A stretch of DNA of 64,000 bases, taken from positions 32,001 through 96,000 of IMG/VR virus record IMGVR_UViG_3300037011_001068. The stretch is one strand, 5' to 3'. Positions 2,971 to 34,689 of this stretch are shown in pieces (the first letter of the stretch is position 1; each line of letters opens with the position of its first letter). A program made the position numbers and the translations under genes. Below the pieces are notes generated by a model. It was not told the DNA's origin. It saw only the letters and a program-made list of their open reading frames with translations, and did no database searches. The stretch comes from a virus.

Positions 2971-3201
2971 ATGCCCAATCCTTCCTCAAAAAAAGTTAGG
3001 TGGCGCGTCCGGGTTCCAATTGTCGGCCTGGCAGAGGCGGACGTGTGGGCGCGGACGCGAGAAGAAGCGGAAGAGACCCTGCGGGGCACTTCCCCTCTTT
3101 CTGTCCTTCGGGGCTCTCTTTCGCTTCTTCGCTTAGGGTATAATTTCGAGGCGGCAACGGTGGAATGTGCAGGGGGATCTCCTGATGCCGATGCAGATTA
3201 A
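2971..3201 (+). CDS. hypothetical protein
   Basis: Short ORF overlapping both neighbours in an operon-like arrangement. Confidence 0.45.
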   Translation: MPNPSSKKVRWRVRVPIVGLAEADVWARTREEAEETLRGTSPLSVLRGSLSLLRLGYNFEAATVECAGGSPDADAD

Positions 3202-6019
3202 TCCCCATCAATGCACTTCGGGGGCTTTGGACACCGGATCGCCCGATAAGGAAATCGTGTGGCGAATGGATCAGGTTGGGCCGATGGTTCGCTTTCTTCA
3301 GGCGAGCCCCATTTTAATTTTCGATTTTGAGACCTCTGGGCTGGCGTATTTTCGGGATGCTGCGGCTTGTGGCATTGCCTTGGCGGGAGTGGATCAGGAG
3401 GGCCAGAGGCGCTCTTATTATGTGCCTTTCAGGCATGCGACCATTTTTCGCCAGCTCCCTATCGAGGTGGTTTCCCAGGGGGTGGCGCCGCTTCTCGCGG
3501 ATCCGAATAAGCTGAAGATCGCGCACCACATTAAATTCGATGAGCACATGGCGCGGCGGGAAGGATGGCGCGTGGAAGGGAAGCGCTATGACACCATGAT
3601 TGCCGCGCACATTGCGGATGAAAATAAGCCTATAGGATTGAAAAGTCGTGCGATGAGCGATCTGCATCGAAATGATGCAGATTATTGGGAAGGTCGTGTT
3701 GATGCGGAAGTTCGACAGCTCGCAAAAAAAGAAGGTCTTGGGATCGCTGCTTATCGTGAAAAATATGGTTATTCTCAGGTGCCACTTCCGATCGTTGGTC
3801 CATACGCATGCTTGGATGTGGAGCTCACGCATGAGCTCTACAAGCTTTACGAGAAAAATGGGCTTTCTTCTTTTTATGGGCCCATTTTCAGCACTGAATC
3901 CAAGCTCACGGGAATTCTCTGCGAAATGGAGGAGGAGGGCCTTCCCATCGATGTGCCTTACGTCCAGAAATTGAGGGAAAATCTTGTGGCGGTGCAGGCT
4001 CAATTGCTGGATTCTATTTTTCGGATAATTCCTGGGAAGCGTTTTAATTTGGCGTCCGATCAGGAGCTCCGTGATTTTTTGACTTGCGATCTGCGGCTCC
4101 CTCTCCACAAATTAACGGAGAAGGAACAGCTTGCGGTGGATGCGGAGGTCCTCGAGGAATTTTCTGCAGCTCATCCAGCAATTTCATTTATTTTGCAATG
4201 GAGAGAAGCGGAAAAAATTCGGAATACCTACACCACGTCTATCCTCTCTCGGTTGGATCGGAATAATATTCTGCACCCGGATTATCAGCAAGTCGGGACG
4301 GTGACTGGTCGGCTTGCTTGCAAATCCCCGAATTTTCAAAATCAGGTGAGGGATGATGATGATCGAGCAAAGAAGCACAGTGGGAAGGGGCTCAAGGAAG
4401 GGGGTGTGGATCCCTGGTCAGTCCGGAGGGCGTATGTTAATCGTGGGCCCGGTTGGGTGCGGTTATTTTTTGACTATTGTTTACATCCTTCGACGTTAGT
4501 GGAGACGGTTGCGGGAAAGCGGGCTTTGGGAGATCTTAAACCTAGGGATAGGGTTTTCACTTGTCGGAATATGGAGATTTCGAGTGGTGAGGTTTCTCGA
4601 GCAGTTCGGATCGGGAAACTCCCCGCTTACAAGATCAATTTCGATAATGGGGAAAGCGTAATTGCTTCTGTGGATCATGAGTGGCCTGTGGCGATTATAA
4701 AAGGTCAGCAGTTTTATCAGATTAAAAGAAAGACGGAGAATCTTCAGGAGGGCCAGTGGGTATTATCTGCGAAGTTGACTGAAAAGGGATGTATATATGA
4801 TGATAGGGTTAGCTCCATTGAATATGTAGGTTTACAAGAGATGTTTGCGATCACAGTGGAGCCTGATCATAATTATATTCTTGGGTGCGGGGTGGTTACC
4901 TGTAATTCTCAAATCGAATTGAGGGTTTTGGCTCATTATTCTCAGGATCCCACTTTGGTTGAGGCGTATCTTACCGGGGAAGATATTCATTCCAGGACTT
5001 CGATGGAGGTTTTTGGGAATAAGTCTTCTCGCCAGCTCGCGAAGATTCTTAATTTCGGCCTTTGTATTGCTGGTGGGCAGAAGGTCTTGACGCGCCAAGA
5101 TGGCCTTGTGCCGATTGAGCAAGTGCAGGATAGGCATTTTCTCTGGGATGGCGTTGATTGGGTTAGACATGCTGGCCTAGTATGCCGGGGGGAAAAGGGT
5201 GTCGTGACGTATGAGGATCTCACTGCGACGCCAGAGCATTTGGTTTTTTTGAAAGGTGGCCGATCTATTCCGATCGGATGCCTTGCATCCTCTATTAGTT
5301 CTGGGCGTCTTGCTCTTGGCGCGGTTGGAGAGGATCCCGTTAAATATTTTGCAGCTTATGGGCCACACTGGTATGCGATAGAGAATTCAGGTTGTGAGAG
5401 CTGCATGAGTTGTTCGCCATGCTTGAAGACAGCAGTGGTATATGATCTTCTGGATGCTGGCCCGCGAAATAGATTTACGGTTGAGGGGAAAATTGTGTCT
5501 AACTCCTATTGTATGTCGGCGATTGGTTACAGCCGCAACGCCAAGATCCCTCAAGAAGAGGCTGAAAAGCACATGGCTCAGTTTTTTGCTCGGTATAGCG
5601 GTATTAAACCCTTTCGCGAGAAACTATGGGCGGAAGTGCAGAGTCAGCGGGGTTATTTCCAGAATATTTTTGGGCGACCCCGAAGAGTGATCGGAATTCT
5701 TTCTCCGGGACGGCAGGCTGTATCGAGGGCTCGCCGGCAGATTATCTCGACCTTGATTCAAGGTACTGCAGCCGAGCTCACGAAAGAGAGCCTTTGCCGG
5801 ATTCATGATTTTTTGCGAGCAGAGAATATTCCCGCGAAGATTGTTGCGACCGTACATGATGAGATTCAGATTGATTGCCCGGTTGGGTCCTTGTCCAGAG
5901 TCGCGCGTGAGACGAAACGATTGATGGAGGATTTTTCACAGTTTGCTCCGATTCCTATCCTCGTGGATGGGCAATATTCCACGCAGAGCTGGAGCGATAA
6001 GCAATCGCTTCCACTGTGA
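3167..6019 (+). CDS. polA: family A DNA polymerase (3'-5' exonuclease + polymerase) containing two inteins
   Basis: FDFETSG (ExoI), HHIKFD, YACLD, TVTGRL, DY^SQIELR (motif A), AKILNFGL^SY (motif B), IQGTAA, VHDEI (motif C). Confidence 0.95.
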   Translation: MQGDLLMPMQINPHQCTSGALDTGSPDKEIVWRMDQVGPMVRFLQASPILIFDFETSGLAYFRDAAACGIALAGVDQEGQRRSYYVPFRHATIFRQLPIEVVSQGVAPLLADPNKLKIAHHIKFDEHMARREGWRVEGKRYDTMIAAHIADENKPIGLKSRAMSDLHRNDADYWEGRVDAEVRQLAKKEGLGIAAYREKYGYSQVPLPIVGPYACLDVELTHELYKLYEKNGLSSFYGPIFSTESKLTGILCEMEEEGLPIDVPYVQKLRENLVAVQAQLLDSIFRIIPGKRFNLASDQELRDFLTCDLRLPLHKLTEKEQLAVDAEVLEEFSAAHPAISFILQWREAEKIRNTYTTSILSRLDRNNILHPDYQQVGTVTGRLACKSPNFQNQVRDDDDRAKKHSGKGLKEGGVDPWSVRRAYVNRGPGWVRLFFDYCLHPSTLVETVAGKRALGDLKPRDRVFTCRNMEISSGEVSRAVRIGKLPAYKINFDNGESVIASVDHEWPVAIIKGQQFYQIKRKTENLQEGQWVLSAKLTEKGCIYDDRVSSIEYVGLQEMFAITVEPDHNYILGCGVVTCNSQIELRVLAHYSQDPTLVEAYLTGEDIHSRTSMEVFGNKSSRQLAKILNFGLCIAGGQKVLTRQDGLVPIEQVQDRHFLWDGVDWVRHAGLVCRGEKGVVTYEDLTATPEHLVFLKGGRSIPIGCLASSISSGRLALGAVGEDPVKYFAAYGPHWYAIENSGCESCMSCSPCLKTAVVYDLLDAGPRNRFTVEGKIVSNSYCMSAIGYSRNAKIPQEEAEKHMAQFFARYSGIKPFREKLWAEVQSQRGYFQNIFGRPRRVIGILSPGRQAVSRARRQIISTLIQGTAAELTKESLCRIHDFLRAENIPAKIVATVHDEIQIDCPVGSLSRVARETKRLMEDFSQFAPIPILVDGQYSTQSWSDKQSLPL
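4478..4906 (+). mobile_element. mini-intein (143 aa) in PolA motif A
   Basis: Begins CLHPSTLV, has block B ASVDHEW and ends VVTCN followed by Ser; removing it restores DYSQIELR. Confidence 0.9.
5063..5503 (+). mobile_element. mini-intein (147 aa) in PolA motif B
   Basis: Begins CIAGGQKV, has block B TATPEH and ends VYDLL..GPRNRFTVEGKIVSN followed by Ser; removing it restores KILNFGLSY. Confidence 0.9.
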
Positions 6020-18667: not shown

Positions 18668-19627
18668 ATGCTGCGATTAGATCAAGACAAGGTTCGGGGG
18701 GTGGTGTTCGGGGTGGCAGTGGGGGATGCAATCGGATACCCTGTTGAGTTTCTTTCCAGAGATCAAATCCGAGAGGTTTGTGGGGGTTCGCTTCAGGGAT
18801 ACCTTCGTCTGGTGGATGGGGTGGCGGAGTATTCCGACGACACTCAGATGTTTTTGGCTGTTCTCCGAGGCCTTCTGAGGGCTATTGGGGGCAAGCTCTC
18901 GGTGGATTGGGATAGCATCCACCTGGCGGTGGCTGAGGAGCTTATTGCTTGGGGGAAATCTTCAGAGAATAACCGGGCTCCAGGAGCGGCGTGCATGTTC
19001 GGGGTCCATAACCTAGCCACGGGGGTTCATTGGAGGGAGGCTGGGAAGGTGCATGCTGGTGGGTGCGGGGCAGCCATGCGCTCCATGGCCTACGCTCTGG
19101 TATTTGATGTTCAGGCGGCCTGGGAGACCGCCAGGGCGCATGCAGCCATGACCCATAGGTCTCCTTCAGGGGAAGCCTCTTCGGCAGCGGTAGCAGCTAT
19201 CACAGGGCTTCTCCTGCGGGGCAAGAAACCTACGGACGCCTGTCTTCAGGGTCATATTATTGCGCGGCGCATTGATCCTTTGACCGGGCAGCTCATCTGG
19301 GAGGCGATCGAGGCATCGCAGGAGATTCTTGAGGGGTCCTTATCGGGGGTGGGCCCTCGGATGGTGGAGCTCCTGGACAAATGGCGGGGCTGGACGGGCC
19401 ATGAGGCGGTGGCCGCCTCGGTTCTGTGCTTCTTGGTTTCTCGGTCTTACCGCGAGGCTGTTCTGTGGGCGGTGAACAGCTCCGGGGATTCGGATTCTCT
19501 GGGGGCCATAACGGGGGCTTTCGCGGGGGCCCATTGGGGCTTTGCTTCTATCCCGCATGCTTGGGTGGGTAGGATCGAGAATCGATTAGGGTTAGAGAAG
19601 ATAGTGGAGTCCGCTTGTGAGGGGTGA
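18668..19627 (+). CDS. ADP-ribosylglycohydrolase (DraG/ARH family)
   Basis: GVAVGDAIGYPVE, YSDDTQM, GCGAAMR, MTH, GDSDSLGAITGAFAGA. Confidence 0.93.
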   Translation: MLRLDQDKVRGVVFGVAVGDAIGYPVEFLSRDQIREVCGGSLQGYLRLVDGVAEYSDDTQMFLAVLRGLLRAIGGKLSVDWDSIHLAVAEELIAWGKSSENNRAPGAACMFGVHNLATGVHWREAGKVHAGGCGAAMRSMAYALVFDVQAAWETARAHAAMTHRSPSGEASSAAVAAITGLLLRGKKPTDACLQGHIIARRIDPLTGQLIWEAIEASQEILEGSLSGVGPRMVELLDKWRGWTGHEAVAASVLCFLVSRSYREAVLWAVNSSGDSDSLGAITGAFAGAHWGFASIPHAWVGRIENRLGLEKIVESACEG

Positions 19628-24867: not shown

Positions 24868-25064
24868 ATGATCAATCCTCTTTCCTTATGGGGGTAAATT
24901 TGCAGGAGGGGAAAATTTGCCTCGATTTTGGGAAGCTTGTTCAGTGCATCGGATTTTATCCAGATCAGGCGGTAGCATTGGCGGATGCGCTGCTTGAAAA
25001 GGTGCAGAAAATAAGGGAATTTGAATGCCCTTCAGTGGAGCAGAAAGGCGGGTTGCTGTCATGA
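24852..25064 (+). CDS. hypothetical protein (paralog of the previous gene)
   Basis: GKICLDFG..VQCIGF...QA..LADALL. Confidence 0.6.
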   Translation: MLEKLDDQSSFLMGVNLQEGKICLDFGKLVQCIGFYPDQAVALADALLEKVQKIREFECPSVEQKGGLLS

Positions 25065-25720
25065 GTGACAACGGGGATAAATTGCTGGATTCAGAGATCA
25101 AGCTTGAGCCTGCGGTGCTGACAAAAGACGGGGGCGTGACGGTTGAGTACATTTACGAGCGGACTTGGACGGCGCTTAATCGTCTGCGGTCATGGGCTCA
25201 GATGATCTCTTGTAAATTGCGCCCCCCTGATAAGGAGGGCAGCGATAAAATTTGTGACGGCATGGAAGATTTTTCGTATATACAAGATTCCATTGATGCG
25301 CTTGCATTATGGGATATTTTTGCTGAGCTCCGTATACATGAGTGTCGTTCTGGGGTTGTGTGGAAGAAAAAAGTGGAAGGTGAGGAAGAGCGAATTTCCG
25401 CTGGGGCTATGGAAAGGCGCATTTCCGAGCTTGCGGCCAAAGGCCCTTGTTCCGATTTTCTCAGATTCGATCTTGAGCAGGAATTTTGGCAGAAAATCCT
25501 TGGTGGGGAAGCGGCCGCGGAATCGGTGCTTCGGGTGTCACGAGCGGCAGTGGACTTTCGATTTGCCATTGAGGCGCTTTGTGCGTCTTCGCGGGAGCGC
25601 TCTCTTGCGATTACTAAGCTCGAGGAGGCGGTTTTGTGGGCGCGAGAATACGTGCTCAAGCGGGCATTGCAGGAGGCTTCATGCGGGGTGCTTCGTGGTC
25701 TATCTTCCCAGAAAAAGTGA
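25061..25720 (+). CDS. protein with a C-terminal Acb2/Tad1-like helical hairpin
   Basis: LCASSRERSLAITKLEEAVLWA. Confidence 0.5.
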   Translation: MSDNGDKLLDSEIKLEPAVLTKDGGVTVEYIYERTWTALNRLRSWAQMISCKLRPPDKEGSDKICDGMEDFSYIQDSIDALALWDIFAELRIHECRSGVVWKKKVEGEEERISAGAMERRISELAAKGPCSDFLRFDLEQEFWQKILGGEAAAESVLRVSRAAVDFRFAIEALCASSRERSLAITKLEEAVLWAREYVLKRALQEASCGVLRGLSSQKK

Positions 25721-26207: not shown

Positions 26208-26399
26208 ATGTCATTTGAAAGTGAAATTGTGAAGTATTGCTTGACGTGCCAAAATATAATTGCTGGACGCGATGGAAATCGTTGTGCTGTGCATCAAAAT
26301 CTTTTGATTTTTCCTGATGACGCGTTAAAAGTGCCTCCACCTTGCGGTGGAAAAAGCTGGGTGATTCAGTCAGCCTTGGAGCTATTATGGCTAAAATAA
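26208..26399 (+). CDS. small Cys-rich protein
   Basis: CLTC...C..H...PPPCGG; GAGG RBS. Confidence 0.5.
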   Translation: MSFESEIVKYCLTCQNIIAGRDGNRCAVHQNLLIFPDDALKVPPPCGGKSWVIQSALELLWLK

Positions 26400-26701
26400 A
26401 TGTGCTGGTGTTCGAGGTTGGGAGGGTAGGCGTGATTCGGGAGATTGAAAATGAGCTAAGCAGCTATCAGGAGGTGGTTGGGGGAGATATCGAAGGCTGG
26501 GGTTTCCCGGCAGCTATGGGCTACGCGGTGATATGTCGCGATTATGGGCGGTATGAGTGCCCTCCGAATCGGGTGATTCACGGGCTTGACATGATCTATG
26601 GCCCTTTCATGATCGTGAAGGTGGACTCTTCAGGGGACGAGGTTTCTATGAGTAAAACGGAAGCGGTTTTTATCCTGAAGTTTTTTTTACAGGAGGGGTA
26701 A
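26387..26701 (+). CDS. DUF3846-like protein
   Basis: EIENELSSYQEVVGGDIE...PPNR...IYGPFMIV. Confidence 0.7.
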   Translation: MAKINVLVFEVGRVGVIREIENELSSYQEVVGGDIEGWGFPAAMGYAVICRDYGRYECPPNRVIHGLDMIYGPFMIVKVDSSGDEVSMSKTEAVFILKFFLQEG

Positions 26702-27028: not shown

Positions 27029-27418
27029 ATGCTGACGGATAGGCCTAAATGCGTGTACTGTGGGCGTGCTCTCTCCAGGTACACTCGAGGGTGGGTCCTT
27101 CGGGTTAACCGGCAAGAGGATGAGCCGATCGTGGGGCAGCAAGGGGTTCTTGAAATTCTCAAGGTGCGAGAAAATGCCTATGGAAAATTCATACGTTACT
27201 GGAAGGGGGAACACGGTTTTCACGGGGATGGTTATTTTTGCTCTCAAAAATGCTTGCATGCATTTGCTTACGTTCTACTGGAATTTTTGGAAGTCAGCGC
27301 TGGAGATCATGAGTGGGATATTTCACGGGCGCTATTTATCGCGATTCGGGAAAAGCGAATGCCTGAGTTTATTCGGGAGGTTTGCGCTAAGGTGCGGAAG
27401 GAAAAAAATACTCCTTGA
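27029..27418 (+). CDS. hypothetical zinc-binding protein
   Basis: CVYCG...YFCSQKC; AAGGAGG RBS. Confidence 0.6.
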   Translation: MLTDRPKCVYCGRALSRYTRGWVLRVNRQEDEPIVGQQGVLEILKVRENAYGKFIRYWKGEHGFHGDGYFCSQKCLHAFAYVLLEFLEVSAGDHEWDISRALFIAIREKRMPEFIREVCAKVRKEKNTP

Positions 27419-27444
27419 CATCGTAATACGATTCGTAGTATGAT
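27415..27444 (+). promoter_or_regulatory. sigma70-type promoter with its own inverted repeats, upstream of the acrVA2-like operon
   Basis: TTGACA-N18-TATGAT; spacer contains ATCGTA-A-TACGAT and TACGA-T-TCGTA. Confidence 0.65.
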
Positions 27445-27450
27445 TAGATC

Positions 27451-27690
27451 ATGGGTCAAGGAGACCCAAAAAGGAGCGGAAAAATGAAATGCGAATTTTG
27501 CTTGAATAGCGGAAAAATAGACCCTGATGATGCACTAGAGGCCGTTGAGAAGGTGTGGATGCATCGTCCATTCAGCACTCCCGATTGCCGATGGGTGCAT
27601 CTCTGCCAGGAGTGCATGGACCAAGGGGCCGAGGATGAGGTGGACGAGAAATGCCCGTGTGGGCATGACTATAAGGAGGAGGGTCCATGA
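27451..27690 (+). CDS. small acidic Cys-rich protein
   Basis: CEFC...CQEC...CPC; likely start ATG near 27485 after AGGAG. Confidence 0.6.
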   Translation: MGQGDPKRSGKMKCEFCLNSGKIDPDDALEAVEKVWMHRPFSTPDCRWVHLCQECMDQGAEDEVDEKCPCGHDYKEEGP

Positions 27691-28001
27691 CCACAAAAGA
27701 AAAACAGGTCCTATGCAAGGCTGAGGTCGTCTGGACACAGGCCTGCGATGCCTGGGAGGATGCCAGAGTGATATGGCGGCAAGAACGTGCGGACTGGGAT
27801 GAGGCCAGAGTGGTATGGCGGCGAGCACGTTCCGCCAGGAGAGATGCAGGGCCCTGTCTAGAGGCAGAGGCCGCTTGGCGTCTAGCCCGGGGGATTTGGG
27901 CCCAGGTTTGCGACGCTTGGGTTGGAGCTGATGCCGTCTGGATCGAGGCCGAGACTGCCCTGGCCGAGGCCGAGGCCATCTGGATCGGAGCCGTGTTGTG
28001 A
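27687..28001 (+). CDS. Trp-heptad helical repeat protein
   Basis: Trp at 7-residue periodicity; start overlaps the previous stop. Confidence 0.6.
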   Translation: MTTKEKQVLCKAEVVWTQACDAWEDARVIWRQERADWDEARVVWRRARSARRDAGPCLEAEAAWRLARGIWAQVCDAWVGADAVWIEAETALAEAEAIWIGAVL

Positions 28002-28204
28002 CTGCCCGTGACGTGGTATGCGTTCGGCTCTCTTCCAAGGAGCGCTCGATCCTCGAGCGCCACGGGAGACAGCTCGCCGACCAGCTTCGGCGAGATCTCC
28101 ATCTCATTTATGTGATCGAGGAGGCGGAGCGCAAAAAGAAGGAGAAGGGCGCTAGTAAATCGAGTTTGACTATCCAGGAGCTTCGGGATCTCCTGGATTT
28201 TTAG
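27998..28204 (+). CDS. small RHH-like regulator
   Basis: DVVCVRLSSKERSILERH. Confidence 0.5.
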   Translation: MTARDVVCVRLSSKERSILERHGRQLADQLRRDLHLIYVIEEAERKKKEKGASKSSLTIQELRDLLDF

Positions 28205-28219
28205 GAAAAGAGGTGAAGG

Positions 28220-28450
28220 ATGAACACAAAAGCGGAAGGTGACGCTATTGCAGAAGAAAGAGCAGAGTTTTTCAGGAGAGCGGAAGCGGAAGCTATTGCA
28301 GAAGAAAGAGCAGAGTTTTTCCTGAGAGCGGAAGCGGAGTATGACCGCACGCACCCTCCCATTCCCGGGCCGGGTCCGAGGGAGCGGCTCATTGTGGGGC
28401 GTCGTGCGCTCCCTACGGGGGATGGTGTGTCCGCGCAAACGAGGGATTGA
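28220..28450 (+). CDS. small protein with an internal duplication (AIAEERAEFFxRAEAE x2)
   Basis: 48-bp tandem duplication at about 28243-28339. Confidence 0.55.
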   Translation: MNTKAEGDAIAEERAEFFRRAEAEAIAEERAEFFLRAEAEYDRTHPPIPGPGPRERLIVGRRALPTGDGVSAQTRD

Positions 28451-29442
28451 TGGCTATGTCACATACAAGACCAGTTGAGCTCATGCGAGCAATGGCAGAG
28501 AAATATCCCAATGCATGGAAGGAGTATGCGGACTTTCGGGCGCGTAAAGGCTCCCCAGATTTCGATGATTGGCCATCGTGGTGCTGGGTGCCCCTTCATG
28601 GCGCTTATGCGATCATTTCTGGAGGGGGTGATGAAAAAGTGCCAGATACAATGTTAAACGACGTATCAATCCTTGGGGCTGTTGCGGCCTGGAGGCAAAC
28701 CCAAGGTGTTTATCATATTGATGTTGATCTAGCATTAGAGCTTCTTGAAGTTCCATTCTCTGGTGAAATTCCTTCCGAGGTTCTTTTTTGCCTTCCGGAA
28801 TGGTGTGTGTATGTTGAGCTAAGTGAAGAGGTTTCTTTTTTTGCTCATCTCGATTGGGATGTCAGTGAGCAACATGCAGAGTTACGGGTTGTTTTATTGA
28901 GGAGCGATCGTAAACCTATGCCTATTGTTGCTCATATTTATTCTAAATCAACAATTGAGGAAATGGTCATTGGCACGGAGAGAGAAATAGAGAAGTTGGG
29001 TCTCATGGTTGATGCGGTTAGAAATTTACGCGATCACATCATTTGTACTTTGCGTACTATTATTCCTGTGCTTCTTTATCTCTGTTCAGATAAGCCTGAT
29101 ATAATCGATCGTGCTGGAAAGAGGAGAAAGCCGGGTCCTCCTCCACCTGTATCAACCGCTACTGGACATAAGTTCTTTCCGCCTGCAAATCCAACGCAAT
29201 GGGATGTTGGATATAAGGTAGGAGCGGTGTTAAGAAGTCACAAGGCAGCAGAGTCAATTCGAGGAGAGGGAACGCATGCGTCACCGAAGCCCCATGTCAG
29301 GCGAGCGCATTGGCACTCTTACTGGACAGGCCCTCGGGACGATCTTGAGAAGCGAAGTATCGTGCTGAAATGGATACATCCTCTCCTGGTAGGAGGCGAT
29401 AAGATCATTCCCACGGTTTATCAGGTAAAGAAGGATCCTTAG
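28447..29442 (+). CDS. AcrVA2/FinQ-family protein (anti-CRISPR-like)
   Basis: AAWRQTQGVYHID, LPEWCVYVE, LLYLCSDKPDI and PHVRRAHWHSYW follow AcrVA2 GAWRNTLGIYQLD, LPDWCVYVD, LLWLC..PDI and PHIRRGHWHGYW (recalled sequence). Confidence 0.85.
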   Translation: MMAMSHTRPVELMRAMAEKYPNAWKEYADFRARKGSPDFDDWPSWCWVPLHGAYAIISGGGDEKVPDTMLNDVSILGAVAAWRQTQGVYHIDVDLALELLEVPFSGEIPSEVLFCLPEWCVYVELSEEVSFFAHLDWDVSEQHAELRVVLLRSDRKPMPIVAHIYSKSTIEEMVIGTEREIEKLGLMVDAVRNLRDHIICTLRTIIPVLLYLCSDKPDIIDRAGKRRKPGPPPPVSTATGHKFFPPANPTQWDVGYKVGAVLRSHKAAESIRGEGTHASPKPHVRRAHWHSYWTGPRDDLEKRSIVLKWIHPLLVGGDKIIPTVYQVKKDP

Positions 29443-29468
29443 GAGTTTCTGGATCGGGAGCCTAGGGA

Positions 29469-29765
29469 TTAGAGATTCTTTTCCACGATACATTCAATAA
29501 TGGATACCATGGGGACTCCTTTCTCCGCGGCTGCTAAGCGCAGCCGTTTATGGAGCTCGGCAGAGATATCGAGCGTGACCCGGCGGACTTCGCGTTTGCT
29601 GGGTTTTTTTTGTGGAGAAGAATTTATGGACGAGAATTTGACCTCTTCGGGTTTTGCGAGTGCTGCGGGCTCTGCGGGCTCTGCGGTATCCAAGGGAACC
29701 TCGGTGCCTTGCACCCAGGAGTCGGCGGAGGCCTTCGGGGGGATGATGATTTTTTTCTGGGTCAT
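29469..29765 (-). CDS. ParG-like ribbon-helix-helix centromere-binding protein
   Basis: Flexible N-terminus (ADSWV) and C-terminal [23 protein letters not shown]; coupled to parA. Confidence 0.8.
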
Positions 29766-31475: not shown

Positions 31476-32165
31476 ATGCGGATTGATCTTCACATCCACA
31501 CCCAGGGAAGCGATGGCATCGGGAGGCCTTCGGAGATTGCCGAGGCGGCGGTCCGGGCTGGGCTCGAGGGGATTGCCATCACGGACCACCATCGCACACG
31601 GACTAAGGCGGGCGAGCAAGTGGCGGAGGCGTGCCGGGCGCGAGGCCTTCTCGTGGTCCGCGGGGCGGAGTATTCGGCAGCCGAGGGGCATGTTTTGGTT
31701 TTCGGGGTGGCAATGGAGGACCTCGCTTTTGGGTTCTATGCCCCCATGCAGACCGTGATTCAGCGGGCATGGGAAGCCGGTGGGGTGGCTATCCCGGCTC
31801 ACCCCTACCACGGATACCGTTCTTGCCTTGGGAGTGGTCTAGCGGCCCTCTCTGGCCTTGTGGCGGTGGAGACCTTCAACGGCCAGGTGGAGACTCGTTC
31901 CCCGGAGGAAAATTGGATGGCTCGGGTGGCGGCGCAGGCGATGGGCCTTCCAGGGGTGGGCGGGAGCGACGCTCATTTTCCTCTGGCTGTGGGGCGATGC
32001 TTTACCCACTTCCAGGGGCAATTTCTGGACGCTCGGCAGGTAGTGGCGGCACTTCGGGGAGGGCAAGGATTCTTGGCTTGCGCCAGAGTGCTGGACAAGT
32101 CCGCAATTTTGAAGCAAAACAAAAGGTATGGACGTGCAATTCTCAGTAAAAAGAAAGCCAGTTGA
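31476..32165 (+). CDS. PHP-domain metal-dependent phosphoesterase
   Basis: DLHIHT, SDG, AITDH, GAE, GH, AHP, GGSDAH. Confidence 0.9.
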   Translation: MRIDLHIHTQGSDGIGRPSEIAEAAVRAGLEGIAITDHHRTRTKAGEQVAEACRARGLLVVRGAEYSAAEGHVLVFGVAMEDLAFGFYAPMQTVIQRAWEAGGVAIPAHPYHGYRSCLGSGLAALSGLVAVETFNGQVETRSPEENWMARVAAQAMGLPGVGGSDAHFPLAVGRCFTHFQGQFLDARQVVAALRGGQGFLACARVLDKSAILKQNKRYGRAILSKKKAS

Positions 32166-34689
32166 GCGAAGGCCTATTAAGAGGCAGCCTATCCTCGCTC
32201 CAGAGAATTCAGAAAATTCAAAAATAGACCCGCTGGGTAGCCAAAAGCTTCTCCGCGCTTCGTGCGCTTTTTTCGCGCAGGATGTCTTGGGGGGTCCAGC
32301 AATTGCCCCCTACCATGGGCGGTTTCTTGTGAGTGAGCATCACGAGGAATGGGATGACTTGATAGTCCGGTATCTTCGTCTGGTGATTCTCGCTCCTCGG
32401 GACCATGGAAAATGTGGGCGAGGGAATGAGCTTCTGCTCGCGGCGGATGGATCTCGTGTGCGGCTGGATCAGTGGCAGGGGGGTTATCTCTGGGTGTATA
32501 GGGAGCAGGATCAATCTTTCGTTCCGGTGTACGCTCCGAAATCTCGGAGAAATGGAGTGCATCCTGTATACGCCGTGAGAACACGCACGGGGCGAGAGCT
32601 CGTTGTTACGGGCAATCATCGTTTTCTTTTAGAAGACGGTTGGAAGGAGACAGCAGAGCTCCTGGTCGGGGATCGGATTGCATTGGCGCAGAGGATCCCT
32701 TCCCCCAAAGGGCTTCCTTGTTCTAATGCTTGGATTCTTGGGTTGCTGTTAGGAGACAAGGGGATTTTTGGGAAAGAGGTTGCAAGTAAACGTGTTCCAG
32801 CAATTATTTTTCAGGCGCGAAAAACGGATATAGCAGATTTTTTGGGTGGGTATTTTGATTCGAGTGGGGTGCTGAATTTTTATGGCGGAGGGTCGCTTGA
32901 ATTCTGTTCGAGATCAGAAGGATTGCTTCAAGATGTGCAGCATTTGCTTGGTCGTTTTGGCATCATCGCGTCTTTAAGCTCCAAGGTTGAAACGCATATC
33001 GGAGAGTCATACTACTCTTTTCGATTGGTCGTTTGTGGTACTGATGTTTTCCGTTTTGCAGAGGCAATTTCTTTGCAGAGCAGCAAGCGGATGGTACTCA
33101 AAAAGCTTGTGGCGGAGCAAAAGAAACGAGGCATTTCTACTGAGTCTTCCGCTTCTCAATGGAAAGGGGATCAACCTATTTTTTGGGATGAGGTCATGGC
33201 GGTTGAGGCGCAAGCGCCCTGCATGACTTGGGCTCTTCAGGTTCCTGATACCCAGACATACCTAGCGAATGACATCGTAAATCATAATACTTATTTTTTT
33301 GATTTCGCTTACGTTATTTGGAAAGCGTGGAGCAATCCAGGAGGAACAGGGTTCATTTTCTCGGCCACAAAACCGCAAGCAGAGAGAATTTTAGAGGACA
33401 TAAAGAATGAAATTGAGAATAACCCCAAGCTTGCACATCTAGTTCCGAATGAGCAGAAAGGGCGGAAGTGGAGCTCTGGGTACATTCGGCTCTCGAATGG
33501 GCATCGTATTTATGCTAGAGGCTATGGGTCGCGTGTTAGAGGGGCGCACCCTGATTATATAATCGTGGATGATGGGATCAATGATGAATCACTTTACTCA
33601 GAAATGGTCAGAAAAAAGCAATCGGACTATTTCTTTACCGCTATCTCTAACATGATTATCCCCGGTGGACAAATTTTAGTGGTGGGAACGCCTTTTCATT
33701 CAAGCGATCTGTATGGGGAGCTCCAGAGTAACCCGGAGTATGAGTTTCGGAAGTACCCTGCCATCAAATCTGATGGTACACCGCTTTGGCCTGATCGATA
33801 TTCTATTGGGCGACTAGAGGCCAAGAAGAGAGAAATTGGTACAATTCGGTTTACGCGAGAATTCATGGTGGACCCGGTGTCGGACGATATGAGTCTTTTT
33901 CCTATCGGGCTCTTCCGCGGGCAGCAGGTGGAGCTCTTCCATGTACGGCTAGGGATGCCTCTGGATTTCTGGAAGCGGGCTGGTGTGATCCCTTACATGG
34001 CGGCGGATTTCGCGATTTCCTCGAACGTCAAAGCAGACTACTTTGTGATTTTCGTGTTGGGGCTCGACAAGTTTGGCAATCGCTGGATCATCGATATTGC
34101 GCGGCATCATGGGATGTCCTATCAAGATCAGCTCTCCGAGATCAATCGGCTGGGGCGAAAATACGAGCCAGCTCTTATTTTCCTCGAGTCTAATCAAATG
34201 CAGCGAATCTTTGGGGATGAGCTCATTCGGACTACTGATCTTCCGATTCGGAAATTCGAGACCACCGCGGCGAAGAACGCTCTCGATAAGGGGGTGCCTT
34301 CTCTTAGGGTACTCTTGGAGAATGGCAAGGTGCGTATCCCTCGGGGGGACAAGCAATCGGTGGAGCTGACCGATCAGTGGATTGGGGAGATGCACGCCAT
34401 CACTTTTTCTGAGGGCAAGGTGCATAGTACGGCTCCACACGATGATACCGTGATGGCTTTTTGGATTTGTGATCAAGCCATTAGGCACGGAGGGTTTCAG
34501 TTTACGTTTGGCGAGGAGTACGGGGAGCCTACGCAGGAGGGATTTCAGGAGCTCATGCAGGAGCTCACGGGGGAGGACTCTTCCCAGAAAAAGGATGTAG
34601 GAACCCCGGCAGCCGTTTCGACGGTCTCTTTGGTTGACGAGGCGGTGGATATCGAGGCTAGAGGCTATCCAGAATTGGGGTATGTGTAG
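32128..34689 (+). CDS. terL: terminase large subunit with intein
   Basis: APRDHGK^T Walker A, RGAHPDYIIVDD, VGTPFH, AADFAIS, HDDTVMA. Confidence 0.93.
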   Translation: MDVQFSVKRKPVERRPIKRQPILAPENSENSKIDPLGSQKLLRASCAFFAQDVLGGPAIAPYHGRFLVSEHHEEWDDLIVRYLRLVILAPRDHGKCGRGNELLLAADGSRVRLDQWQGGYLWVYREQDQSFVPVYAPKSRRNGVHPVYAVRTRTGRELVVTGNHRFLLEDGWKETAELLVGDRIALAQRIPSPKGLPCSNAWILGLLLGDKGIFGKEVASKRVPAIIFQARKTDIADFLGGYFDSSGVLNFYGGGSLEFCSRSEGLLQDVQHLLGRFGIIASLSSKVETHIGESYYSFRLVVCGTDVFRFAEAISLQSSKRMVLKKLVAEQKKRGISTESSASQWKGDQPIFWDEVMAVEAQAPCMTWALQVPDTQTYLANDIVNHNTYFFDFAYVIWKAWSNPGGTGFIFSATKPQAERILEDIKNEIENNPKLAHLVPNEQKGRKWSSGYIRLSNGHRIYARGYGSRVRGAHPDYIIVDDGINDESLYSEMVRKKQSDYFFTAISNMIIPGGQILVVGTPFHSSDLYGELQSNPEYEFRKYPAIKSDGTPLWPDRYSIGRLEAKKREIGTIRFTREFMVDPVSDDMSLFPIGLFRGQQVELFHVRLGMPLDFWKRAGVIPYMAADFAISSNVKADYFVIFVLGLDKFGNRWIIDIARHHGMSYQDQLSEINRLGRKYEPALIFLESNQMQRIFGDELIRTTDLPIRKFETTAAKNALDKGVPSLRVLLENGKVRIPRGDKQSVELTDQWIGEMHAITFSEGKVHSTAPHDDTVMAFWICDQAIRHGGFQFTFGEEYGEPTQEGFQELMQELTGEDSSQKKDVGTPAAVSTVSLVDEAVDIEARGYPELGYV
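32413..33288 (+). mobile_element. intein (292 aa) with a degenerate LAGLIDADG homing endonuclease, in the TerL Walker A motif
   Basis: Begins CGRGNELL, has TGNH, LGLLLGD and FLGGYFDSSG, and ends IVNHN followed by Thr. Confidence 0.9.

Follow-up and report, generated by a model that had tools for sequence, protein, structure and literature searches.

The operon at positions 27404-29442 of a 64,000-nucleotide (nt) stretch of viral DNA (the window; positions 32001-96000 of the 105,756-base IMG/VR virus record IMGVR_UViG_3300037011_001068, which is estimated to be 98% complete) is read here, with a probability of roughly 60%, as a mosaic accessory operon in which an imported cassette of promoter, cargo genes and a small conserved open reading frame (ORF3) has been joined to a gene of the AcrVA2/FinQ family, the roles proposed below for its parts included. 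The front half would be a self-contained cassette consisting of a promoter with a private palindrome, a leader hairpin, a cargo slot that holds ORF1 and ORF2, and ORF3. By analogy with acr-aca operons, ORF3 most likely binds the palindromes in the promoter spacer and so, once an early burst of expression has passed, turns down the promoter from which it is transcribed. The back half would be made up of ORF4 and the AcrVA2/FinQ gene, which has a lower guanine-plus-cytosine (GC) content, and both are probably transcribed by read-through past a hairpin and T-run at the end of ORF3. Judging from its family, the AcrVA2 homolog most likely acts on one specific protein of the host or of a rival element by binding its nascent N-terminal peptide, and this binding would result in the loss of that protein's mRNA during translation.

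A cassette shared with an unrelated viral contig

The evidence for the imported cassette comes from a comparison with L085, a 34.8-kb IMG/VR viral contig that is otherwise unrelated to the phage and has a GC content of 59%, compared with 51.7% for the phage. Genome-wide, the two share only two blocks by blastn, one of 86 nt at 91% identity and one of 130 nt (ORF3) at 88%. The first is the promoter/leader block, and it matches L085:7695-7778. In L085, the same promoter, spacer core, leader and ribosome-binding site are followed by one unrelated gene of 76 amino acids (aa) and then by the ORF3 homolog, the start of which overlaps the stop of the 76-aa cargo gene as ATGA. The homology ends after the ORF3 homolog, and there is no AcrVA2 gene behind it. 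For ORF3, therefore, what is found is a conserved small gene that has been co-inherited with a promoter around differing cargo.

Purifying selection acts on ORF3. Its sole homolog, P0122 (L085:8001-8216), is 77% identical, and the conserved parts are residues 1-45 (93% identical) and a C-terminal LTIQELR(D/E)LLD block, with a variable linker between them. Over the N-terminal 45 codons and the C-terminal block, and with the GTG/ATG difference in the start codon set aside, the codon differences comprise 19 synonymous and 4 non-synonymous changes. L085 and the phage are identical over the stretch that begins at the -10 element and includes the whole leader hairpin, and because there are zero differences in this stretch compared with 19 synonymous changes in ORF3, the leader is more constrained than the synonymous sites of ORF3.

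Sequencing runs provide additional views of the locus. In run X3, an independent assembly yielded a 34.6-kb contig in which the sequence from 27472 to 27999 is replaced by 239 other letters; further fragments from X3, at low depth, match the phage without a difference. Fragments from run X2, which belongs to another study, are identical to the phage over 28003-28249 and 28535-29279 and span the ORF3/ORF4 junction and the AcrVA2 gene. A leader probe and an ORF3 profile gave no match in a genome contig collection. Directly behind the ORF3 homolog, at L085:8290-8420, there are direct repeats of approximately 20-25 nt (GGTCTCCGGAGTTTCC-like) that resemble iterons or binding sites.

The arrangement is similar to that of acr-aca operons in its strong promoter with inverted repeats, its tightly packed genes, its variable small cargo, and the presence of a small conserved gene that is co-inherited with the promoter between unrelated elements. 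It differs in that ORF3 matches no DNA-binding family, in that the anchor gene lies in the middle of the operon instead of at its end, and in that the cargo genes are candidates. Known Aca proteins are recognizable DNA-binding proteins, mostly of the helix-turn-helix type.

Table 1. Features of the operon and its immediate downstream region, in window coordinates.
Feature	Position	Strand	Details
Conserved non-coding block: promoter, operator-like spacer, leader, ribosome-binding site, start codon	27404-27489	+	Common to L085
Sigma-70-type promoter, TTGACA-18 nt-TATGAT	27415-27444	+	11/12 consensus positions; best site in region
Operator-like triple half-site, TCGTA-A-TACGA-T-TCGTA	27421-27437	.	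Sits in promoter spacer
Leader hairpin, UGGGUC-AAGGA-GACCCA	27452-27468	+	Predicted 5' end of mRNA; RNAfold -9.4 kcal/mol
ORF1, 68 aa, small Cys-rich (zinc-ribbon-like), cargo slot position 1	27484-27690	+	Called in source collection
ORF2, 104 aa, Trp-heptad helical hairpin, cargo slot position 2, probable gene	27687-28001	+	Coupled start/stop
ORF3, 68 aa, conserved anchor gene, candidate autoregulator, Aca-like by position	27998-28204	+	L085 homolog
Hairpin + T5, possible leaky terminator or attenuator ahead of ORF4	28172-28203	+	RNAfold -13.0 kcal/mol; 9-bp outer stem, UUUUU
ORF4, 76 aa, duplicated acidic helix (AIAEERAEFF twice) and Pro/Gly-rich tail	28220-28450	+	Called in source collection
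AcrVA2/FinQ-family gene	28447/28450-29442	+	331 aa from TTG 28447; 330 aa from ATG 28450 more likely
Terminator-like hairpin + T8	29577-29615	+	12-pair stem then TTTTTTGT; inside convergent parG-like gene

Operon layout, promoter palindromes and the role of ORF3

Five tightly packed genes, all on the + strand and each preceded by a ribosome-binding site, lie behind the promoter at 27415 (Table 1). The junctions are ATGA between ORF1 and ORF2, GTGA between ORF2 and ORF3, a gap of 15 nt between ORF3 and ORF4, and TGATG between ORF4 and the last gene. The original prediction for this region, which was made from the letters of the sequence, had listed four small ORFs followed by an AcrVA2-like gene, and all five are present as listed. 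It had also described the last gene as AT-richer, in agreement with a GC content of 0.466 (0.39 at third codon positions, GC3) compared with 0.56-0.62 for ORF2-4 and 0.517 for the genome. Long minus-strand ORFs at 27572-28438 and 27535-28107 were considered as genes and rejected, because this stretch is GC-rich and the strand opposite them carries the conserved ORF3, which is under selection.

A promoter scan of the + strand from 27445 to 29442 found no promoter-like site, so that ORF4 and the AcrVA2 gene probably depend on read-through, possibly at a lower level. The hairpin at 28172-28203 was also listed by the terminator scan, and the homology with L085 stops at the same place. This coincidence, together with the -13 kcal/mol stability of the hairpin and its T5 run, the sharp change in composition, and the different sequence found upstream of the closest (77% identical) homolog of the AcrVA2-like gene, could point to two expression units. 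In such an arrangement, a cassette of promoter, ORF1, ORF2, ORF3 and terminator would stand in front of an older or separate insertion carrying ORF4 and the AcrVA2 gene, which would receive weak read-through and be associated with the cassette by accident. The gap of only 15 nt between ORF3 and ORF4 and the absence of a promoter-like site for ORF4 in the scan count against such an arrangement, and we consider it a possible explanation that falls short of being the probable one. With no such site in front of ORF4, both it and the AcrVA2 gene need upstream transcription either way. Beyond the last gene, the terminator-like hairpin at 29577-29615 folds within a larger structure of -71.8 kcal/mol that was predicted by RNAfold for positions 29440-29620.

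The strong promoter with palindromes in its spacer that had originally been predicted is borne out by the 11/12 match to consensus and by the triple half-site at 27421-27437, which consists of two overlapping 11-bp palindromes. The 105.8-kb genome has a single copy of this triple half-site, and when the genome was shuffled 100 times, 13 of the shuffles had one at any position. Because only these 13 shuffles have one anywhere, yet the real one lies exactly inside the 18-nt spacer, its placement is not ascribed to chance. L085 carries the same promoter hexamers, and the spacer core GTAATACGAT is kept there.

Other promoter-like sites, located at approximately 17898, 25757 and 30503 of the window and at genome position 31891 (109 nt before the window), have the palindrome GGCAAnTTGCC in the spacer, and two of these four are identical (TTGACATAGGAGGCAATTTGCCTCATA). 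Together they have the appearance of a regulon that covers the phage's own blocks of accessory genes, with one of them divergent from parA. The three sites within the window resemble the 27415 promoter in the succession of a -35 element, a spacer-filling palindrome, a -10 element and then a block of small genes. Because the phage's own accessory promoters share this layout, the spacer palindrome is interpreted as the local design of a repressible promoter. They differ from the 27415 promoter in having another palindrome and presumably another repressor, and they were not found in L085, whereas the 27415 promoter was. Since the palindromes differ, the 27415 promoter would be expected to answer to a different protein, and its palindrome would fit an imported cassette that brings its own putative regulator.

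ORF3 is a plausible autoregulator, because a conserved promoter and ORF3 placed around variable cargo is the acr-aca layout. The case for this plausible role is wholly one of architecture. The original prediction had called ORF3 an Aca-like regulator and ribbon-helix-helix (RHH)-like. Its regulatory part is favored by the way in which the promoter/leader and ORF3 travel together around differing cargo, while the RHH part finds no support from profile searches, the AlphaFold2 (AF2) monomer or fold searches. At E<=0.1, ORF3 had no match to an RHH profile, whereas the neighboring parG-like gene does match RHH models. A profile search of solved structures (PDB) gave nothing for ORF3, and its neighbors in the ESM Atlas are without names.

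Several observations weigh against the mosaic-operon reading. The first group concerns the regulator and its site. ORF3 is without a DNA-binding family match in Pfam, PHROG and NCBIfam, and its AF2 monomer (predicted local distance difference test score, pLDDT, of 85) has an extended stretch at residues 1-12 and a continuous helix at 13-49 instead of a strand-helix-helix arrangement, although the model is that of a monomer and, as the protein may be an obligate dimer, is not decisive on the fold. The Foldseek and VIA fold searches gave generic helical matches only (Z<=4.8). Both outer half-sites of the operator-like element are degenerate in L085, and because the cassette is known from two instances only, the operator assignment rests on a conserved core of 10 nt. 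The second group concerns transcription: the hairpin and T5 behind ORF3 may halt most transcripts before they reach ORF4 and the AcrVA2 gene, and read-through from the promoter at approximately 25757 could contribute to transcription. Finally, ORF2 has no homologs in a search of 5.8 billion proteins and none in viral contigs, its coding status is not confirmed by codon statistics, and no anti-defence family matched any of the small ORFs in the Pfam, PHROG and PADLOC scans.

Some of these observations, namely that the searches with ORF3 returned no DNA-binding family or fold and that the outer half-sites are not conserved in L085, would suit an ORF3 that is a conserved effector of the cassette (e.g. 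in anti-defence or host takeover) and not a regulator, with the palindromes bound by another host or phage factor or by nothing. We consider this unlikely. ORF3 has been co-inherited with exactly one non-coding element, the promoter/leader, across otherwise unrelated genomes; its N-terminal 45 residues, the putative DNA reader, show 93% identity, and the core of the operator is kept; and the phage's own promoters are taken as suggesting that spacer palindromes act as operators.

The AcrVA2/FinQ-family gene and its target

Full-length membership of the last gene in the AcrVA2/FinQ family is secure. The AcrVA2 blocks that had been pointed out originally, including PHxRRxHWH, are confirmed by alignment to solved AcrVA2, and profile searches are significant, with a match to phrog_6160 at E=4.8e-53 (residues 8-318 against positions 7-319 of a 322-position profile) and a match to PDB 7ci1_A at E=5e-21 in two blocks. 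The 996 homologs recovered at E<1e-10 all carry precomputed PF26125, and the gene is single-copy in the genome. In the alignment to 7ci1, PHVRRAHWH falls opposite PHIRRGHWH and AAWRQTQGVYHID opposite GAWRNTLGIYQLD. The equivalents of AcrVA2 W79, D89, H286, R288 and H291 are all present (AAWR...YHID and PHVRRAHWH), and across 25 divergent homologs W81, R82, H282, R284, H287 and H289 are invariant (H282, R284 and H287 being numbered from the ATG at 28450).

In AcrVA2, H286, R288 and H291 are required for knock-down and not for binding, while W79 and D89 contribute, with a moderate loss of function if mutated (Marino et al., bioRxiv 10.1101/2022.11.29.518452). Because every residue needed in AcrVA2 is retained, an AcrVA2-like mode of action is proposed for the homolog. 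The same authors describe FinQ as an AcrVA2 homolog that lowers the mRNA of F-plasmid transfer genes, and report that plasmids and megaphages widely carry AcrVA2 homologs, in hosts that usually lack Cas12a; the background given for AcrVA2 and FinQ in the original prediction is found in their account (Marino et al., bioRxiv 10.1101/2022.11.29.518452).

Compared with AcrVA2, the Moraxella bovoculi prophage anti-CRISPR (PDB 7CI1/7CI2), the homolog is similar in length (331 versus 323 aa), in being carried on a mobile element, and in its AWR...Y..D, PEWCVY and PHxRRxHWH blocks, the last with the H/R/H residues needed for mRNA knock-down. It differs in that identity is approximately 35-40% and confined to the aligned blocks, in that it does not lie beside acrVA1, and in that it is the last gene of a five-gene operon. 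FinQ of IncI/F-like plasmids is another member of the same family. The family assignment as such is ordinary, the family being catalogued and widespread on mobile elements. Only residues 68-127 and 201-301 can be aligned to AcrVA2, and the N-terminal ~67 and middle ~70 residues cannot; the parts expected to set target specificity therefore differ. On the published distribution of the family, a target other than Cas12a appears more likely.

One version of such a target would place the homolog in competition between mobile elements, as with FinQ, where its effect would be to shut off a gene in a competing plasmid or phage, and the small ORFs would be unrelated accessory genes. This version draws on the lowering of F-plasmid transfer-gene mRNA by the family member FinQ (Marino et al., bioRxiv 10.1101/2022.11.29.518452), on the 514 of 554 plasmid records with homologs that are conjugative, on the parA and parG-like genes directly downstream on the opposite strand, given which the phage may live as a plasmid-prophage, and on the lack of conserved partner genes for AcrVA2 homologs. 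A protein with an Acb2/Tad1 hairpin located 1.7 kb upstream points instead to an anti-defence setting, no rival element could be identified from the locus, and the mechanism would be the same, with a difference in target only; we regard this version as doubtful. That the homolog is a true anti-Cas12a protein directed against a type V-A system of the host is very improbable, for although the founding member acts in this way and none of its functional residues has been lost, homologs typically occur in settings that lack Cas12a (Marino et al., bioRxiv 10.1101/2022.11.29.518452), and the alignment to AcrVA2 is limited to residues 68-127 and 201-301.

The four small ORFs had originally been proposed as anti-defence candidates through their association with AcrVA2. 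This argument is weak. Among 83 other AcrVA2-homolog loci, tblastn found no relative of ORF1-4, and clustering of neighboring ORFs found no neighbor family in more than 7 loci. ORF1-4 were therefore rejected as conserved partners of AcrVA2, and because there are no recurrent neighbors in those loci, the link between the small ORFs and AcrVA2 is local only. AcrVA2-family genes behave as free-standing cargo. The L085 cassette has no AcrVA2 gene, and the argument from association is weakened further by the hairpin and T-run between ORF3 and ORF4 and by P0002, the homolog nearest in sequence (77% identity; encoded on a 136.5-kb contig), in which unrelated Cys-rich in-frame sequence lies upstream in place of ORF4. 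P0002 was not among the homologs recovered by the scans of viral and metagenome contigs. P0002 is called with an 85-aa N-terminal extension (CxxCxxCC and further Cys motifs) as an in-frame fusion to the AcrVA2-like body. The extension matches nothing in Pfam, and it reflects either a genuine fusion or a gene call that was drawn too long.

Cargo genes, genomic setting and significance

An anti-defence reading of ORF1 and ORF2 is nevertheless reasonable, because the two lie in the variable cargo slot and an Acb2/Tad1-like gene is nearby. ORF1-4 have no credible family match in Pfam, PHROGs, NCBIfam or PADLOC; KdpD-like and DUF5490 rows for the small ORFs were discounted, as they fall far under the cut-offs. 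For ORF1, the start at 27484 behind AAGGAG is the most likely, and a 79-aa reading from 27451 is less likely. Ten homologs were found at E<1e-3, in which C3, E4, C6, W25, H27, C41 and C44 are invariant. The AF2 model of ORF1 (pLDDT 84.7) was matched by nothing in Foldseek at E<=0.001 or in VIA at Z>=2, and no match to ORF1 was found among phage or plasmid isolate records.

ORF2 has 11 Trp residues at seven-residue spacing in two runs and internal 42-nt repeats. Its start, behind GGAGG, overlaps the stop of ORF1, and its stop overlaps the start of ORF3. The gene was not called in the source collection; its sequence is present in the ESM Atlas, where the model is a long helical hairpin (pLDDT 0.87). 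Because of the coupled start and stop and the periodicity at the protein level, ORF2 is regarded as a probable gene. ORF4 contains a tandem repeat at 28231-28338 (48-nt unit, 2.2 copies, 91%), and its own frame is the best of six by codon score.

The source material of the phage was sediment metagenomes. Family scans of the window identified genes for PolA with an intein, an SbcC-like ATPase, an amidase, an ADP-ribosylglycohydrolase, a DUF3846 protein, a PHP protein, an intein-bearing large terminase, a portal protein and several giant proteins. On this gene content the record is read as a large phage, possibly with a plasmid-like lifestyle. The scans also placed ParA and a small RHH partner (the parG-like gene) on the minus strand directly downstream of the operon. 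With ParA as the query, no relative was found among viral contigs, and with TerL as the query only a 5.6-kb fragment was recovered, which does not cover the AcrVA2/cassette locus.

Other genes in the window are of note in their own right. The Acb2/Tad1-hairpin protein upstream of the operon (25025-25720, + strand) is a 231-aa protein with domain PF24729 (E=2.3e-7, 31.4 bits compared with a cut-off of 27) and is a candidate sponge of cyclic-nucleotide defence signals. The DUF3846 protein (26342-26701, + strand; E=2.5e-14) belongs to the block of genes between the promoter at approximately 25757 and the one at 27415. A full-length ADP-ribosylglycohydrolase (PF03747, E=9e-61) is encoded in an accessory region at 18668-19627 on the + strand and could reverse host ADP-ribosylation. 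Intein-like insertions with Hint/intein-splicing domains are found in the family A DNA polymerase (3167-6019) and in the large terminase (32128-34689), the latter additionally with LAGLIDADG.

A more far-reaching proposal is that the promoter/leader and ORF3 are the anchor of undescribed, self-regulated anti-defence cassettes that move between unrelated phages, that the cargo (the zinc-ribbon family of ORF1, the Trp-ladder hairpin of ORF2 and the 76-aa gene of L085) consists of new defence inhibitors, and that the AcrVA2 homolog silences a defence gene other than cas12a. Taken as a whole, this proposal is speculative and would more probably fail than hold.

With the AcrVA2 assignment, a catalogued family in which Cas12a is the only known target gains a further member. 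Since the H/R/H motif is intact, the published trapping of the bound target with an inactive mutant would be applicable to this homolog. The new part is the front of the operon, where a conserved promoter and ORF3 form an anchor with exchangeable cargo. It supplies three or four small proteins as anti-defence candidates, together with a candidate new regulator-operator pair.

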